64,000 nucleotides of DNA from contig OX597840.1 in NCBI GenBank assembly GCA_951406725.2, positions 19,530,001-19,594,000 on the forward strand, given 5' to 3'. Below the pieces are notes generated by a model that had not been told where the DNA came from, made no database searches, and worked only from the letters and a program-made list of their open reading frames with translations. Position 1 is the first letter of the stretch. The number at the start of each line of letters is the position of its first letter. Positions 4,421-61,845 of the stretch are shown here, piece by piece. The stretch comes from Octopus vulgaris. Its lineage: Eukaryota. The translations under genes and the position numbers were made by a program.

Positions 4421-4777
4421 TACACACATATATATGTATATATCTACACAGATTCAATTATACACTCACATACACAGCTTCACACACACATACTCTCACT
4501 CATGCACATGGTCACGCATACATACACATACACACACACACACACACGAACACACACACACATGGACACTAACATGTACACACACACAAACAAACTCTTA
4601 AACCACGTATTTAGCCAATACACACACACACACATTCTCGCATGGCTGTACACACACATCTAAGCTCATAACCACACGCACACATGCACACACACATACA
4701 TAACTATACACACATACATACAAACATTACACACATATATATGTACACACGCACACATACACATATGGATATGTATA

Positions 4778-4986
4778 CTCTTTTACTCTTTTACTTGTTT
4801 CAGTCATTTGACTGCGGCCATGCTGGAGCACCGCCTTTAGTCGAGCAATTCGACCCCGGGACTTATTCTTTGTAAGCCCAGTACTTATTCTATTGGTCTC
4901 TTTTGCCGAACCGCTAAGTAACGGGGACATAAACACACCAGCATCGGTTGTCAAGCAATGCTAGGGGGACAAACACAGACACACAA

Positions 4987-5017
<31 letters not shown>

Positions 5018-5190
5018 CATATATACGACGGGCTTCTTTCAGTTTCCGTGTACCAAATCCACTCACAAGGCATTGGTCGGCCCGGGGCTATAGCAGAAGA
5101 CACTTGCCCAAGATGCCACGCAGTGGGACTGAACCCGGAACCAGGTTGTTGGTAAGCAAGCTACTTACCACACAGCCACTCCTGCGCCTA
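4778..5190 (-). mobile_element. SINE family 1, full length (tRNA-derived head, CORE-like body, internal CA/TA microsatellite; resembles octopus OR-type SINEs)
   Basis: Reverse strand starts ggcgcaggagtggctgtgtggtaag (A box) ..ggttccgggttcagtccc (B box) ..cttgggcaagtgtctt (CORE-like) and ends in a gagtaaaa-repeat tail; more than 10 copies in window. Confidence 0.9.
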
Positions 5191-5238
5191 CAAACATGTA
5201 TGTATACAAACATATCTATACACACCGCCACATATGTG

Positions 5239-6528: not shown

Positions 6529-6724
6529 TGGGATGTACTCGCATAGCAAGTGACCTGATCTGAGATCGTGTGCTGAAACGAAAACAATTACAGTGTGGAA
6601 GGTGTTTGTAAGCCATTTAAGAAACACACAAAAACCGTTAGATTCACTTCAACATTTAAGTTTAATTTGTCAAAATATTTTCGTCACTTTAAGACCGCGA
6701 GCTGTTCACTGACAAAAATCCATG

Positions 6725-6795
<71 letters not shown>

Positions 6796-6915
6796 ATTGC
6801 AGCGTGGAAGGTGTTTATAAGCCATTTAAGAAACACACAAAAGCCGTTCGACATTTAAGTTTAATTTGTCAAAATATTTTCTTAAATGGCTTACAAACAC
6901 CTTCCACGCTACAAT
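6529..6915 (-). mobile_element. Short Penelope-like (pLTR-type) repeat, family B, with internal (TA)n, partial second copy and inverted tail
   Basis: 6530-6726 matches 32736-32935; 6796-6830 is inverted at 6881-6915; acaatatacaac duplicated at 6517-6528 and 6911-6922. Confidence 0.7.
6666..6716 (-). ncRNA. Putative minimal type I hammerhead ribozyme, G3-C8 core variant
   Basis: Minus strand: UUUGUCA GUGAACA g cUCGC ggucuuaaa GUGAc GAA AAUAUU U UGACAAA; 7-bp stem I, palindromic stem III. Confidence 0.6.
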
Positions 6916-8119: not shown

Positions 8120-8260
8120 ACCACCTTCTTCCTTTTCTTTAGATTTTCCTCTGTCTCCTGTTTCCGAAGAAGAGCTTTGCTCGAAACCTAAAACAACCAC
8201 TCTTTCCTTCTCTGAGCGTCTCTTATTAATACTTTGCATGTGCTACGTCCAAATAGTATC
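8120..8260 (+). mobile_element. Diverged relative of Penelope-like family A with decayed hammerhead
   Basis: gttt CCGAAGA a GAGC ttt GCTC GAAA ccta aaac at 8160-8194, followed by ctgagcgtc as in family A. Confidence 0.55.
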
Positions 8261-9999: not shown

Positions 10000-10207
10000 A
10001 TCCAAACAAGAAAGCACAAAAAAACACAACAACGCGAGGACGTGGAACAAATATAGTATTATTGGACGCTCAGGAAAGAAGGAAAGAAGCAGGGTTTAAC
10101 GTTTCGAGCGGAACTCTTCGTCAGAAACATAGGAAAAGGAAAGATCCAAAGAAGGGAAGACGGAGGAAAAAAAATCGCCAACGGTACACACGCGGTCACA
10201 TTTTGAA
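9996..10207 (-). mobile_element. Short Penelope-like repeat family A, abutting (TA)n
   Basis: About 210 bp gttaatccaaac..cgcggtcacattttgaa, also at 39565, 61309, 61655; contains a hammerhead motif. Confidence 0.75.
10094..10128 (-). ncRNA. Minimal type I hammerhead ribozyme, canonical core
   Basis: Minus strand: GUUU CUGACGA a GAGU ucc GCUC GAA ACGU U AAAC; palindromic ACGU stem III as in dimer-forming minimal hammerheads of Penelope-like elements. Confidence 0.75.
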
Positions 10208-15794: not shown

Positions 15795-16570
15795 GTTTAC
15801 TTGTTTCAGTCATTTGACTGCGGCCATGCTGGGGCACCGCCTTGAAGGGTTTCAGTCGAACAATTCGACCCCTGGACTTATTTTTTAAAAGCCTAGTATT
15901 TAGTCTATCGGTCGAACACCAAAGTTATGTGTTTGCCGAATGCAAACAGACCATCACCGGTTGTCAAGTGGTGATGGGGAGGGGGACAAACACGCACACA
16001 CATATACGACGGGCTTCCTCCAGTTTCCGTCTACCAAATCCACTCACAAGGCTATAGTAGAAGACACTTGCCTAAGGTACCACGCAATGGGACTGAACCC
16101 CGAACCATGTGGTTGAGAAGCAAACTTCTTACCACTCAGCCATATATATATATATATATACTATACTTTACTCTTTTACTCTTTTACTTGTTTCAGTCAT
16201 TTGACTGCGGCCATGCTGAGCACCGCCTTTAGTCGAGCAACTCGACCCCAGGACTTATTCTTTGTAAGCCCAGTACTTATTCTATCGGTCTCTTTTGCCG
16301 AACCGCTAAGTGACGGGGACGTAAACACACCAGCATCGGTTGTCAAGCAATGCTAGGGGGACAAACACAAACACACAAACATACATATATATATACATAC
16401 ATACGACATACTTCTTTCAGTTTCCGTCTACCAAATCCACTCACAAGGCTTTGGTCGGCCCGAGGCTATAGCAGAAGGCACTTGCCCAAGATGCCACGCA
16501 GTGGAACTGAACCCGGAACCATGTGGTTGGTAAACAAGCTACTTACCACACAGCCACTCCCGCGCCTGTG
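15795..16570 (-). mobile_element. Two adjacent SINE family 1 copies (15795-16142, 16165-16570)
   Basis: Both match family 1 body and head. Confidence 0.9.
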
Positions 16571-19979: not shown

Positions 19980-20200
19980 AATGATTTCAAATTTTGGCAC
20001 AAGGCCAGTAAGTTCGGAGGATGGTGTTAGTCAATTACATCGACCTCAGTGCGTAACTGATACTTATTTTATCGACCCCGAAAGGATAAAAGGCAAAGTC
20101 GACCACGGCGGAATTTGAACTCAGAACATGAAGACGGACGAAATGTCGCTAAGCATTTTGTCCGGCGTGCTTACGATTCTTACCGCTCGCCGCCTTACTT
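19980..20200 (-). mobile_element. SINE family 2 copy
   Basis: ttttatcgaccccgaaaggataaaaggcaaagtcgacc..gaatttgaactcagaac..gctcgccgcctt. Confidence 0.85.
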
Positions 20201-21790: not shown

Positions 21791-22454
21791 GTGACAGATC
21801 GGTGTAAAAGGGTGAGACGGGGACACAGGGGAAAGACCACCCGAACGCGCAGGATGGGTGGGGGGAGACCCCATGAGCTATGTTTTGTATTCAATGATCG
21901 AAAGGATAAAGAGTGAATCCCGACTTGTTGGGATTGGTTGCTCAGCAACGTCGAAGGATGAAGATGATGATGATGAAGATGATGTTGGTAAGGATAAGGA
22001 TGCTGCTGCTGCTGATGATGAGGATGAGGATGAGGAAGATGATGATGATGATGATGATGATGACGACGACGACGACGACGACGACGACGATGATGATGAT
22101 GATGATGATGATGATGTCGATAATGTTGATGATGATGATTCATACGCACGCGCGCACGATCCCATTTCTTTATTCTGTCGATCTGTTTTGCTGCAGGAGT
22201 CCTTTACGTCGGCTACTCTCTTATCCAGAAACCATATCAAGCAACGTGACCTTCTTTTCAAGATGGTAGTAGAGTGAAAGCTGAAATTTGACTGCTATTT
22301 CCCTCTGCTTTCTTTTAGTTGACCTCATGCCAACGTTTTTCGTCCTGTCGTGCAACATTGATGTGGGCAACGTTTTGAGTTGGACACCGTGTATTGACGA
22401 TCGATATATTTATGTATTATTGATGACTCAATCGGTTATAAAGACCCCATTCTC

Positions 22455-22675
22455 TCTCTTTTACTCTCTTTTACTTGTTTCAGTCATTTGACTGCGGCCA
22501 TGCTGGAGCACCGCCTTTTAGTCGAGCAAATCGACCCCGGGACTTATTCTTTGTAAGCCGAGTACTTATTCTATCGGTTTCTTTTGCCGAACCGCTAATT
22601 GACGGGGACGTATACACACCAGCATCGGTTGTCAAGCAATGCTAGGAGGACAAACACAGACACACAAACACACAC

Positions 22676-22752
<77 letters not shown>

Positions 22753-22917
22753 CGACAGGCTTCTTTCAGTTTCCGTCTACCAAATCCACTCACAAGGCAT
22801 TGGTCGGCCCGAGGCTATAGTAGAAGACACTTGCCCAAGGTGCCACGCAGTGGGAATGAACCCGGAACCATGTGGTTGGTTAGCAAGCTACTTACAACAC
22901 AGCCACTCCTGCGCCTA
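22455..22917 (-). mobile_element. SINE family 1, full length
   Basis: Complete tail-to-head match with internal CA/TA tract. Confidence 0.9.
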
Positions 22918-22919
22918 TA

Positions 22920-23254
22920 TAGCGACTCCTTCGGTCATGAATGATCGTGGGATTGCACCTAGGAAGTTCTCCGAGGCACAAGTCCAGGCAATGTTGTTTA
23001 TGGAAGACCAGCAGTCACCCTTACATACCAGCCTCCGCTCTTCATGCCACTGATGTTATCCAAGCGAAAGGCAAAGGGGCCGATACAGCTTGACACCTGT
23101 GACATTGCAACTCATTTCTACAGCTGAGTGAACTAGAGCAACATGAAATAAAGCGTCTTGCTCAAGAACACAATACGCAGCACGGTCCGGTAATCGAACA
23201 CACAACCTCCAGATTGTGAGCCCGACGCCCTAACCACTGAGCAATGCGCCTTCA
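22920..23254 (-). mobile_element. SINE family 3, near full length
   Basis: Reverse strand: ggcgcattgctcagtggttagggcg..gttcgatt..gtgttcttgagcaagacgcttta..cactcagctgtagaaatgagt. Confidence 0.75.
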
Positions 23255-23485: not shown

Positions 23486-23531
23486 TTTGCCAAAGCTTTT
23501 TCGTTGCCATTCGTGACCTCATCAATGACAT
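23486..23531 (-). ncRNA. Decayed minimal hammerhead related to family B
   Basis: Minus strand: UGUCA UUGAUGA g GUCAC gaaug GCAAC GAAAAAGCU U UGGCA; lies between inverted repeats at about 23312-23335 and 23596-23620. Confidence 0.5.
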
Positions 23532-32729: not shown

Positions 32730-32735
32730 CATTAC

Positions 32736-32935
32736 GGAGATGTACTTGCATAGCAAGTGACCTGATCCGAGATCGTGTGCTGGAACGCAAACAATTGCAG
32801 CGTGGAAGGTGTTTGTAAGCCATTTAAGAAACTCACAAAAACCGTTAGATTCATTTCAAATATTTAAATTAAATTTGCCAAGATATTTTCGTCGCTTTAA
32901 GACTGCGACCTCTGCACTGACAAAATTCCGTGCAG
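32736..32935 (-). mobile_element. Penelope-like repeat family B, second copy, with decayed hammerhead at 32874-32924
   Basis: Matches 6530-6726; minus strand UUUGUCA GUGCAGA g GUCGC agucuuaaa GCGAC GAAAAUAUCU UGGCAAA. Confidence 0.7.
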
Positions 32936-33469
32936 CACGGAACAAAAAAAGAAACAAAAGAAAAACGGAGAAAAAGAAGAGAGAAAGAAACGAACGTAAG
33001 GACGTGCATAAGATCCTTAAATCCTTAAAAATGTTTTAGCCCGAAGGCCGAGGCCATGCTGGGGCACCACCGCTGAATAAAATTAGTTGCAGACAGAGAT
33101 TGAAACCTCTATCTCTACACAGTATTAGTAAGTAAATTACCAACCCTTTTACCCACTAAGCCACCAAACCACACCTTATATATATTAATATATTCTCTAC
33201 GGAATCTATTCATAAGTGTATGGTCGGTGCAGGGTTACGGTAGAATATACTTGGCGAAGGTGCCACGCAATGGGACAGAACCTGGAAACATGTGGTTACG
33301 AAGCAAGCTTATTACCATGCAACCACTTCGCAAAGTTTGCTTTTTGTGGATGTATATATGTGGTAAATTATAAAACATCAACTTTCGCTGCACACATTTA
33401 GAAATGATTAAATTCTTTGCTGATTGCGCGACAGTTTTAATATTCTTCCTTTGATTTTAGCGATGCTAT

Positions 33470-33705
33470 CCGTAGAAAGAAAGTCAGACATTTATGTTTA
33501 AACTCGATGAAAATGCTTCACAGGCTGTTTCTAATATCAATGTAGCGTTTGAGTTGGGGTTTTGGGCTTCAAATACAAGGACAAGGTGGTTCAATAAGTT
33601 TCAATCTGGAGACCTGTACCTGAATTATAAACCCCGTGGATGGTTTCCATCAGGGCTCAATGCAGAGACATTGAAACAGCCCGAGGGAGTCTAATCCAAG
33701 GAATA
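33470..33705 (+). pseudogene. mariner (Mos1/SETMAR-like) transposase N-terminal HTH remnant
   Basis: FKLDENASQAVSNINVAF..TRWFNKFQSGDLYLNYKPRG.PS.LNAETLK..ESNPR parallels mariner FKLG.NA....RNIN.AFG..RWF.KF.SGD..L.D.PRSGRP. Confidence 0.75.
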
Positions 33706-35837: not shown

Positions 35838-35851
35838 GATCGATAGATATA

Positions 35852-36080
35852 TTTCTTTACTACCCACAAGGGGCTAAACATAGAGGGGACAAACACGGAC
35901 AGGCAAAAAGATGAAGTCGATTACATCGACCCCAGTGCGTAAATGGTACTTAATTTATCGACCCGGAAAGGATGAAAGGCAAAGTCGACCTCGGTGGAAT
36001 TTGAACTCGGAACGTAACGGCAGACGAAATACGGCAACGCATTTCGCCCGGCGTGCTAACGATTCTGCCAACTCGCCGAC
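35852..36080 (-). mobile_element. SINE family 2, full monomer
   Basis: tttctttactacccacaaggggctaaac..gattctgccaactcgcc. Confidence 0.9.
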
Positions 36081-36955: not shown

Positions 36956-36997
<42 letters not shown>

Positions 36998-37385
36998 TAG
37001 GAGTGACTGTGTGGTAAGTAGTTTGCTTACCAACCACATGGTTCCGGGTTCAGTCCCACTGCGTGGCATCTTGGGCAAGTGTCTTCTATTATAGCCTCGG
37101 GCTGACCAAAGCCTTGTGAGTGGATTTGGTAGACGGAAACTGAAAGAAGCCCGTCGTATATATATGTATGTGTGTGTATGTGTGTGTGTGTCTGTATTTG
37201 TCCCCCCAACATCACTTGACAACCGATGGTGGAGTGTTTACGTCCCCGTAACCGAGCGGTTCGGCAAAAGAGACCGATAGAACAAGTAATAAACTTACAA
37301 AGTCCTGGGGTGGATTTGCTCGATTAAAGGTGGTGCTCCAGCATGGCCACAGTCAAATGACTGAAACAAGTAAAAGAGTAAAAGA

Positions 37386-37386
<1 letters not shown>
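36998..37386 (+). mobile_element. SINE family 1, near full length
   Basis: aggagtgactgtgtggtaag..ggttcagtccc..tgactgaaacaagtaaaagagtaaaagag. Confidence 0.9.
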
Positions 37387-37442
<56 letters not shown>

Positions 37443-39480: not shown

Positions 39481-39564
<84 letters not shown>

Positions 39565-39762
39565 GTTAATCCAAACAAGAAAGCACAAAAAAACACAACA
39601 ACGCGAGGACGTGGAACAAATATAGTATTATTGGACGCTCAGGAAAGAAGGAGTGTTTAACGTTTCGAGCGGAGCTCTTCGTCGGAAACATAGGAGAAGG
39701 AAAGATCCAGAGAAGGGAAGACAGAGGGAAAAAAATCGCCAACGGTACACACGAGGTCACAT
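39565..39762 (-). mobile_element. Penelope-like family A copy (hammerhead 39655-39689, core mutated to CCGACGA)
   Basis: Matches 9996-10207. Confidence 0.75.
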
Positions 39763-39800
39763 TGCAGCGTGGAAGGTGTTTATAAGCCATTTAAAAAACA

Positions 39801-41323: not shown

Positions 41324-41544
41324 TGTGTGTGTATGTGTGTGTGTGTGTGTGTGTTCAGTATCCAAAAAAACACTACATCAAAAGATAAATAATGAAAGAA
41401 TAAATTGAGAATCGAAACCGAAATCTCTCTGTTTAATTCCGAAACCCGCCCCGTTGTTTATTTATTTATCTATCTATTTATTTATTTATTGTTATTTATC
41501 CCTTTACTTTACACAAGAAAATTATATGAAGACTCGTTCATGCT

Positions 41545-41735
41545 ACACGCCGGACAAAATGCTTTGCCACGTTCCGTCCGTCTTTACGTTCTGTGATCAA
41601 ATTAAGTGGCGGTCGACTTTGCCTTTCGTCTTTCGGGATCGATAAATAAAGTACCAGTGAAACATTGGGGTCGATGTAATCGACTCGTCCCCTCCCCTCA
41701 AAATTTCGGGCTTTCAGCCTTTAGCAGAAAGAATT
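41545..41735 (+). mobile_element. SINE family 2, diverged
   Basis: cgccggacaaaatgctt..gtcgactttgcctttc..gataaataaagtaccag..tggggtcgatgtaatcgact. Confidence 0.8.
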
Positions 41736-41819
41736 ATTATTATTATTGTTGTTGCTTGTTGGTATTATTCTAGCGATTCTCAAATGCAAAGAAAAATAAA
41801 TAAATAAAATGTGTGAATG

Positions 41820-47329: not shown

Positions 47330-48274
47330 GAGGCGGCGAGCTGGCAGAAACGTTAGCACGCCAGGCGAAATGCGTACTGAGTTCAAATTCCGCCGAGGTC
47401 GACTTTGTCTTTCATCCTTTCGGGGTCGATAAATTAAGTACCAGTTACGCACTGGGGTCGATGTGATCGACTGTATCCGTTTGTCTGTTCTTGTTTGTCC
47501 CTTCTGTGTTTAGCCCCTTGTGGGTAGTAAAGAAATAGGTATTTCGTCTGCCGCTACGTTCTGAGTTCAAATTCCGCCGAGGTCGACTTTGTCTTTCATC
47601 CTTTCGGGGTCGATAAATTAAGTACCAGTTATGCACTGGGGTCGATGTGATCGACTTAATCCGTTTGTCTGTTCTTGTTTGTCCCCTCTGTGTTTGGCCC
47701 CTTGTGGTTAGTATAGAAATAGGTATTTCGTCTGTTGTTGCGTTCTGAGTTCAAATTCCGCCGAGGTCGACATTGCCTTTCATCCCTTCGGGGTCGATAA
47801 ATTAAGTACCAGTTACGCACTGGGGTCGATGTAATTGACTTAATCCGTTTGTCTGTCCTTGTTTGTCCTCTTTGTGTTTAGCCCCTTGTGGGTAGTAAAG
47901 AAATAGGTATTTCGTCTGCCGCTACGTTCTGAGTTCAAATTCCGCCGAGGTCGACTTTGCCTTTCATCCCTTTCGGGGTCGATAAATTAAGTACCAGTTA
48001 CGCACTGGGGTCGATGAGATCGACTTAATCCGTTTGCCTGTACTTGTTTGTCCCCTCTGTGTTTAGCCCCTTGTGGGTAGTAAAGAAATAGGTATTTCGT
48101 CTGCCGCTACGTTCTGAGTTCATATTCCGCCGAGGTCCACTTTGCCTTTCATCCTTTCGGGGTCGATAAATTAAGTACCAGTAACGCACTGGGGTCGATG
48201 TGATCGACTGTATCCGTTTGTCTGTTCTTGTTTGTCCCCTCTGTGTTTGGCCCCTTGTGGGCAATAAAGAAATA
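47330..48274 (+). mobile_element. SINE family 2 pentameric concatemer (one head + five units of about 184 bp) with 16-bp TSD
   Basis: Junction aaagaaata|ggtatttcg at about 47538, 47722, 47906, 48091; tatattatcgatcagc at 47314-47329 and 48275-48290. Confidence 0.92.
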
Positions 48275-48872
48275 TATATTATCGATCAGCAACGGTTTAA
48301 GAAAAAACAAAAACAAAAAAAACAAAAAAAAAAAACAAGGGTCGACTTGAACGGAAATCGAACACTGGACGTCAAAAAAGAAAAGAAAACAGCTGAAGAA
48401 AACAGCAAAGGATTTTGTCATGTATTTTACTGAACGTTTAGAACATTCGAGAAGCGAATGCTGTAAATTGATTCGGGGATGAATGTATAGGAGAACGCTT
48501 GGTTGTTTTGCCCGAGTCGTCCTCTGGGGATTATGGGGAGAGGGTGGGGAGAGAGGAGGGGGGAGAGAAAGAAAGAGAGAACGTAAATTAGAAAAACATT
48601 GAAACTGCTTTGACTACTCAACTTCTCGATATAATTGCGAGTAAGGTCGTTGAAATCAGTTGAGATTTCGTCGTCCAAATTGCGAAAATATAAACAGGGA
48701 AGAAAGAGAATTGATGGCGTCTGTTGCAGTCAGCAGAATTATTATGAAAATAAAACCCGAGTGAATTAATTGATATTGCAATAGTTGGAGACGTTTGAGT
48801 TCGGTTCTGATCAAAGAATATATACATACAGACATAGAATACATGCATACATACACACACACACACACACAG

Positions 48873-51903: not shown

Positions 51904-51980
51904 AAATTATTTTACCATTTTCTACCTTGACTCTTTTTTCCATATATATATATCAACTCGTGTGTTCCTTTTACACATTC

Positions 51981-52055
<75 letters not shown>

Positions 52056-52138
52056 GAATGTGTAAAAGGAACACACGAGTTGATATATATATATGGAAAA
52101 AAGAGTCAAGGTAGAAAATGGTAAAATAATTTTATAAA
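51898..52138. repeat. Apparently perfect inverted repeat (about 88-bp arms) around a (TA)n centre
   Basis: tttataaaattattttacc..acacattctacata / tatgtagaatgtgt..ggtaaaataattttataaa. Confidence 0.95.
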
Positions 52139-53136: not shown

Positions 53137-53465
53137 GGGCGATGAGCTGGCAGAATCGTTAGCCCGCCGGGTGCAATGCTTAGCGGTATTTCGCCTGCCG
53201 CTACGTTCTGAGTTCAAATTCCGCCGAGATCGACTTTGCCTTTCATCCTTTCGGGGTCGATAAATTAAGTACCACTTACGTACTGGGGTCGATATAATCG
53301 ACTTAATCCGTTTGTCTGTCCTTGTTTGTCCTCTCTGTGTTTAGCCCCTTGTGGGTAGTAAAGAAATAGGTATTTCGCCTGTCTTTACGTTGTGAGTTCA
53401 AATTCCACCGAGGTCGACTTTGCCTTTCATCCTTTCGGGGTCGATAAATTAAGTACCAGCTGCGC
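53137..53465 (+). mobile_element. SINE family 2, head + about 1.5 units
   Basis: Same aaagaaata|ggtatttcg junction at about 53369. Confidence 0.9.
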
Positions 53466-53499
53466 ATATATATATATATATGGAAAAATATAATTTACA

Positions 53500-60959: not shown

Positions 60960-61260
60960 CTGTGAGTTGGCAGACAAATGCTTAACGGCATTTGATCTGT
61001 CTTTACGCTTTGAGTTCAAATTCCATCGCAGTCGACTTTGCCTTTCATCCTTTCGGGGTCGATGAAATAAGTACCAGTTGCGTACTGGGTCGATGTAATC
61101 GACTACTCCCTCCACCGCCAAATTTCAAGCGTTGCACCTATGGTAGAGAGGATTACTAACTCAAGGCAGTGAGCTGACAAAATTGTTAGCAAGCCGGATA
61201 AAATGCTTAGTGGTATTTCTTTCGGCTTTTGAGGTTCTCGGTTCAAATCCCGCCGCGGAA
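60960..61260 (+). mobile_element. Two diverged SINE family 2 copies
   Basis: gagttggcagacaaatgctt..gactttgcctttcatcctttcggggtcga; second head aggcagtgagctgacaaaattgttagc. Confidence 0.8.
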
Positions 61261-61308: not shown

Positions 61309-61521
61309 GTTAATCCAAACATGAAAACACAATGAGAAAACACAACAACGTGAGGACGTGGAACAAGTATAGTGTTATTGGAGGCTTAGGAAAGAAAAAA
61401 AAGAAGGAGGGTTTAACGTTTCGAGCGGAGATCTTCGTCAGAAACATAGGAATAGGAAAGATCCAAGGAAGGGAAGACGAAGGAAAAAAATCGCCAACGA
61501 TACACACGCGGTCACATTTTG

Positions 61522-61559
<38 letters not shown>

Positions 61560-61845
61560 CGGGAAGTTTTACGAAAATAAACAAAAGACGAAGGCGCTCA
61601 GGAATAGAAATAAATATGGCGCTCAGGAATAGAAATAAAACAAGTCTTTTACGTGTTAATCCAAACATGAACAAAGAGAAAACACAACAACGTGAGGACA
61701 TGGAAGAAAAATATTGTTATTGGACGCTAAGGAAAGGAAAGAAAGGAGGAGGATTTAACGTTTCGAGCGGAGCTCTTTGTCAGAAACATAGGAAAAGGAA
61801 AGATCCAAGGAAGGGAAGACGGAGGAAGAAAATCGCCAACGATAC
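61309..61845 (-). mobile_element. Tandem pair of Penelope-like family A copies (61309-61523, 61655-61845), hammerheads at 61411-61445 and 61753-61787
   Basis: Both match 9996-10207; cores CUGACGA and CUGACAA respectively. Confidence 0.75.

Follow-up and report, generated by a model that had tools for sequence, protein, structure and literature searches.

At the heart of the active site of the hammerhead ribozyme lies the C3-G8 pair. In the window analyzed here, a stretch of 64,000 nucleotides of Octopus vulgaris contig OX597840.1, a dispersed repeat designated family B carries a hammerhead-like motif in which one copy reads G3 and C8 at these two positions. The question arises whether family B descends from an element with a hammerhead whose core pair had been exchanged, from an element whose ribozyme was already inactive, or from a sequence that resembles a hammerhead for another reason.

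Family B and the other repeats of the window

The motif is located at 6666-6716, where a family B repeat had been proposed from the sequence of the window, and belongs to a dispersed repeat of ~200 bp, close to one end of the unit. The following members of family B were found:

6532-6725, minus strand: copy 1, identified by blastn and nhmmer; the hammerhead lies near the 5' end in the minus-strand sense, with (TA)n directly beyond
32735-32939, minus strand: copy 2, with the motif at 32874-32924 and 20 differences from copy 1 in 194 aligned columns
6795-6882, minus strand: truncated copy 3, which starts at G12, with the initial half of the core missing
6878-6915, plus strand: inverted 38-bp piece of family B abutting copy 3
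39761-39800, minus strand: family B fragment of 40 bp that lacks the motif and is fused to a copy of a different repeat with a hammerhead

Truncation of copy 3 at the cleavage site was considered and rejected, because this copy starts at G12 rather than after U17. Tandem units with complete hammerheads were not found in the window, where copies of family B are dispersed or partial.

Contigs from four runs were aligned to family B, and 14,436, 10,944, 7,452, and 4,748 of them matched; these values are not copy numbers, but they show that thousands of distinct versions of the repeat exist. Among the 24 runs listed, 21 contained part of the repeat and ten contained at least half of its words. The runs with the repeat carried five organism labels, with one additional marine metagenome entry sharing fewer than five words. 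Loose contig ends accumulated at 6532 and at 6717-6721, hence the family B unit has defined boundaries at both termini. Copies adjoined (TA)n or (TACA)n, and opposite-strand joints occurred among the contigs.

Microsatellite flanks and adjacent inverted, truncated copies are described for insertions of Penelope-like elements (PLEs) in the portion of PMC8557442 consulted. Family B shows the same traits, which are weak indicators in a genome rich in microsatellites. A PLE RT or GIY-YIG domain was not found among the 91 least repetitive of the 417 window ORFs of at least 70 aa, so that the PLE origin of family B is one that we infer; the family likely represents a non-autonomous derivative of a Penelope-like pLTR. 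Homologues and atlas matches of the repeat-derived ORFs were not found, the two matches obtained being tandem-repeat artefacts. Furthermore, family B copies were absent from JGI metagenome contigs (0 matches), GTDB contigs, and plasmids. A 20-letter pattern matched three viral contigs, and the one inspected (L001) lacked the rest of the fold. Short motifs of family B were unmatched in the published paper text and the two supplements (one of them Craig 2021) as far as these were available.

The window contains a second dispersed family of ~230 bp, which carries a canonical minimal hammerhead (min-HHR) of the PLE type with a CUGACGA core, an extra A, and an ACGU palindrome. Its motifs are located as follows:

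8160-8193, plus strand: canonical hammerhead
10095-10128, minus strand: canonical hammerhead
39656-39689, minus strand: canonical hammerhead
61412-61445, minus strand: canonical hammerhead
61754-61787, minus strand: canonical hammerhead

C3 is retained in all five of these motifs, G8 in four, and U4 in three. This decay is similar to that of family B; apparently, individual copies in this window commonly lack one or two core bases. At 39542-39800, the family B fragment of 40 bp directly adjoins a copy of the canonical family, an arrangement that insertion of such elements into or beside each other would produce.

Additional repeats were observed. A SINE-like family, which includes a five-unit tandem array of ~184 bp and whose top descriptor matches are without a hammerhead, occupies 47350-48290, 53140-53470, 35838-36080, 20010-20200, 41540-41745, and 60970-61165. 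Another SINE-like repeat, ~450 bp long, consists of two parts and contains a (CA)n/(TA)n tract; at least ten copies, full or partial, are present (4735-5195, 16165-16570, 22450-22925, 36975-37435, and shorter ones). Part of the HTH domain of a Mos1/mariner transposase (PF17906, E 6.6e-7) lies at 33476-33691 on the plus strand, and a long, near-perfect, MITE-like inverted repeat centered on (TA)n at 51909-52127 gave a spurious Rfam microRNA match. Two pairs of repeats of ~195 bp are likely young, namely 1-194/39941-40134 (97% identical) and 42681-42878/45717-45914 (94% identical).

The fold of copy 1 and its resemblance to a hammerhead

Read on the minus strand from 6716 to 6666, copy 1 has the layout of the minimal type I hammerhead of PLEs, i.e., a three-way junction with its ends in helix I:

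6710-6716, minus strand: 5' arm of helix I, 7 nt
6703-6709, minus strand: core positions 3-9, read as G3 U4 G5 A6 A7 C8 A9
6702, minus strand: extra nucleotide G9a, present in all three readable copies; a PLE min-HHR trait according to the part of PMC4209133 consulted
6683-6701, minus strand: helix II with a 9-nt loop; in copy 1 with a C10.1/C11.1 mismatch and a G·U wobble at 6686
6680-6682, minus strand: G12 A13 A14, read from the sequence and from the family variant data
6674-6679, minus strand: palindromic AAUAUU (A15.1 to U16.1), predicted to pair with that of a second copy as helix III
6673, minus strand: U17, with cleavage predicted between 6673 and 6672 from hammerhead numbering
6666-6672, minus strand: 3' arm of helix I; a family variant at 6670 gives a U·G wobble

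The original prediction had described a 7-bp helix I (UUUGUCA/UGACAAA), the core GUGAACA, and, on its 3' side, GAA, AAUAUU, and U17; all of these were recovered at 6716-6666, the last three at 6682-6680, 6679-6674, and 6673. Helix II is a perfect GUCGC/GCGAC in copy 2, as described, and in copy 1 the pair at the junction is broken, as C10.1 faces C11.1. It had overlooked G9a between A9 and 10.1, which is a signature of PLE min-HHRs, and it had also missed damage in both window copies, at 10.1 in copy 1 and, besides position 8, at A6 and U16.1 in copy 2. The canonical core C3 U4 G5 A6 N7 G8 A9 is not present: G3 was found in three of three readable copies, C8 in two. On the 3' side, G12 A13 A14 A15.1, U16.1, and an H17 are complete in copy 1, and the palindrome at 15.2-16.2/loop III is present as AAUAUU both in this copy and in the family majority.

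A strict hammerhead descriptor gave no matches in the window, and neither family B copy passed it. With a relaxed score devised post hoc, copy 1 ranked first in the window (16.6); two of 100 block-shuffled windows equalled this value and none exceeded it. By arithmetic, an arrangement with the majority bases of the family would reach 19, as compared to the shuffle maximum of 16.6. Folding energies of the single copies were not significant (z of -0.67 and -1.44). Rfam covariance models reported no hammerhead in copy 1 or copy 2; they also missed the canonical min-HHR of the same window, so the silence of Rfam is uninformative. Over the whole window, the first 150 of 493 Rfam rows consisted of microsatellite noise. 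The AAUAUU self-duplex has a calculated energy of -0.2 kcal/mol, which makes the predicted helix III marginal. When either natural copy was cofolded, the textbook dimer was not the minimum-energy fold and other pairings were preferred. Among the loose contig ends listed, no accumulation was seen at the predicted cut site 6673/6672.

Could the likeness to a hammerhead be accidental, the motif being a DNA hairpin just inside the terminus of a Helitron-like or MITE-like element? Such an origin is compatible with the inverted repeats nested close to one terminus, the lack of a coding partner among the scanned ORFs, the silence of Rfam, and the two shuffles that equalled copy 1. A chance hairpin would, however, have to bring U4, G5, A9, the extra base, GAAA, the palindromic hexamer, a single N17, and both helices into register; moreover, the majority arrangement would lie above every shuffle, and Rfam fails on the canonical control as well. 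We consider this origin very unlikely. The traits of PLE min-HHRs given in PMC4209133 (the extra base between 9 and 10.1, G10.1-C11.1 in two of three copies, a palindromic 15-16 segment, and H17) are all in register, and descent from a hammerhead is well supported.

The original prediction had also named the motif at 23486-23531 as a relative of family B and had suggested that the swap arose inside a real hammerhead lineage.

23486-23531, minus strand: decayed hammerhead-like motif with a U3·G8 core, an extra G, and a weak helix II

The stems resemble those of family B in part: the arms of helix I are like those of copy 2, and helix II pairs at three of five positions. Among 5,030 non-family tiles this motif was the best for copy 2 and tied for fourth place for copy 1; furthermore, it was the next nhmmer match after the family. 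The E value of that match was 0.89, however, and the flanks could not be aligned better than shuffled sequences, 20 to 100 of 200 of which did as well. Kinship was therefore not substantiated, and with so weak a likeness and unrelated flanks the suggested course of the swap found no support either. The motif was rejected as a proven member of family B; it may represent a canonical hammerhead that belongs to some distant family and has decayed.

Core positions across copies and across the family

Majority bases for 6666-6696 were obtained from a family-wide contig tally, and core positions 3-10 are known from three copies. The third readable copy is the loose end of a single contig of run X17, readable solely owing to its divergence; it shows the core GUGGACA, G9a, and G10.1. 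Copy 2 reads GUGCAGA, as expected from the original prediction, and thus has G3, C6, and G8, together with C16.1, a perfect 5-bp helix II, and, like copy 1, a helix I of 7 bp. All three copies are decayed. G3, already noted for both window copies, was found in all three, as were U4, G5, A9, and G9a; C8 was present in two of the three, A6 in one, and G10.1 in two, copy 1 having C at this position. Position 6 is C in copy 2 and G in the X17 contig end, so that A occurs in copy 1 only. C8 had been thought to rest on one copy; this count rises to two with the X17 contig end, while the G8 of copy 2 was confirmed. A Watson-Crick pair 3:8 is possible in two of the three readable copies.

A single-master model with assumed divergences gave posteriors of 0.9999 for G3, 0.96 for C8, and 0.60 for A6, figures that subfamilies would weaken. 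A simulation of the depth profile with guessed tool settings returned G3:C8 as the best core in 11 of 72 parameter sets; among the 20 best-fitting sets, G3·G8 was preferred in nine, a half-and-half mixture in seven, and G3:C8 in two. From the sequences at hand we regard C8 as quite probably the majority base of the family at position 8, and the full G3 A6 C8 core as a fairly probable majority. Judged from three copies, the C3-G8 pair was likely flipped to G3:C8 in the source element.

G was found at 6686 in ~92% of the depth in the DNA runs X3, X2, and X18, and in 86% in X17. The majority G restores the G-C pair that is lost in copy 1 and yields a helix II of 5 bp. C11.1 was present in about 94% of the family depth. 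The 3' arm of helix I showed a single common variant, at 6670, with 7-24% of the depth, and the resulting U·G wobble keeps the pairing. Positions 6672-6681 were free of variants at 1% in four runs, except for 6677 in one run. A variant of G12 reached 0.2-3.2% of the depth, and 6680-6681 had no variant row at 1%. Since position 16.1 showed no family variant at 1%, the C16.1 of copy 2 is private damage.

Conservation of the stems above flank level was not borne out. With a minor allele of at least 5% in run X3 as the threshold, a test that has little power in a recently amplified family, the structured 3' half had three variable positions out of 22 and the flank 14 out of 99 (p = 1.0). Each of these three is a wobble that keeps the pair. 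Core, helix III, and N17 taken together had 0 of 10 variable positions as compared to the same 14 of 99 (p = 0.35). Additionally, several subfamily-level alleles were found elsewhere in the family B element; positions with alleles that can serve to sort subfamilies are 6634, 6640, 6660, 6670, and 6691.

These results bear on the reading that family B is a dead fossil, i.e., that the source was already inactive, with G3 fixed while the bases at 6 and 8 drifted or differed between subfamilies, and that the repeat spread without cleavage. The G8 of copy 2, the occurrence of A6 in just one of three copies, the subfamily-level alleles, the frequent preference of the simulation (under its guessed settings) for G3·G8 or a mixture, and stems no more conserved than the flank all agree with it. 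According to the part of PMC11167929 consulted, cleavage of the Anolis PLE hammerhead depended on protein, and insertion in vitro proceeded without it; a high copy number therefore need not imply cleavage, and the available text of PMC8557442 describes Naiads that spread without canonical hammerheads. Against an inactive source, C8 is common to two independent copies, and damage at 16.1 is demonstrably private to copy 2. Furthermore, complementary hits at exactly positions 3 and 8 would be expected about once in 230 cases among 13 core positions, by post hoc arithmetic that presumes C8 and A6 as majority bases. On balance, an inactive source appears unlikely.

G3 could also mark the end of a spliceosomal intron, the working ribozyme being formed in the spliced RNA with another 5' arm. 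The sequence up to G3, UUUUGUCAG, would suit this, as the 5' arm of helix I with G3 resembles a pyrimidine tract and CAG acceptor, and in D. virilis the intron of Penelope stops where helix I begins on its 5' side (PMC4209133, as far as consulted). Yet the 5' arm encoded in the genome forms all 7 bp of helix I without a mismatch, a fit that an arm removed by splicing would not require, and no joint at G3 was among those listed for X17, a possible RNA run. The chance that G3 is a splice acceptor thus seems slight indeed.

We therefore lean, with somewhat more than even confidence, towards family B as a high-copy PLE pLTR derivative whose source carried a compensated G3:C8 min-HHR that would cut slowly as a dimer, with copy 1 as a likely decayed descendant. 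By analogy with PLE min-HHRs (PMC4209133 and PMC6765202, both in part), helix III would arise in a precursor RNA by pairing between the AAUAUU segments of two copies. The source element likely carried the compensated G3:C8 core, in which this pair would replace C3-G8; by analogy with engineered mutants, activity would thus be low. The dimer would cut slowly after U17 (6673/6672). We infer selection on the 3:8 pair.

Comparison with known hammerheads

The closest system known to us is the PLE min-HHR (Cervera and de la Peña 2014, PMC4209133), in particular the variants of Aedes and Drosophila with a small palindromic helix III. As far as described in the consulted part of this source, family B shares with it type I topology, the extra nucleotide between 9 and 10.1, G10.1-C11.1, GAAA, a palindromic 15-16 segment, and dispersed solo copies in large families. 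It differs by G3, likely C8, a G as extra base (found in 1 of 56 in PMC4209133), and the lack of a linked PLE ORF among those scanned in the window. The 56 representatives in Fig. S3 of PMC4209133 comprise 53 with C3, three with U3, and none with G3; they were collected with a descriptor that fixed the core, and the tally is biased accordingly.

Watson-Crick exchange of the 3:8 pair is likewise found in nature as U3-A8, according to the consulted portions of Perreault et al. 2011 (PMC3088659) and of PMC4209133, which reports this core for the Schistosoma Cercyon family. The change to U3-A8 takes two transitions and keeps a pyrimidine at 3 and a purine at 8, whereas G3:C8 takes two transversions and flips the geometry. 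The same swap has been engineered in laboratory constructs with partial rescue (PMC11167929, PMC9901934, review PMC8495972, each in part). C3G/G8C partly restored cleavage of the Anolis PLE hammerhead (PMC11167929), and a full pairwise scan identified G:C as the sole double mutant rescuing the 3:8 region (PMC9901934). In the literature searched, which covers the published PLE hammerhead variant sets incompletely, natural 3:8 pairs were C3-G8 and U3-A8 only, and G3:C8 occurred in engineered mutants. The family B motif is likely a new core variant of a known ribozyme, its class and the type of its host element both being known.

A stronger claim would be that a natural, active G3:C8 hammerhead became fixed in a very abundant repeat, that thousands of them per genome escape searches for CUGANGA, and that 'hammerhead-less' PLE clades may carry swapped ones; we hold it tentatively, at rather less than even confidence. 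If true, a high-copy natural family would show that a two-transversion path can be crossed. Thousands of aged copies would then be available for testing selection on the PLE hammerhead, and censuses with a fixed core would undercount such ribozymes.

Finally, non-LTR retrozymes (bioRxiv 10.64898/2026.07.22.740005, in the part consulted) are likewise short, non-coding, furnished with a type I hammerhead, and proposed to be non-autonomous PLE derivatives. They are defined as tandem repeats, whereas the copies of family B are dispersed monomers or fragments.
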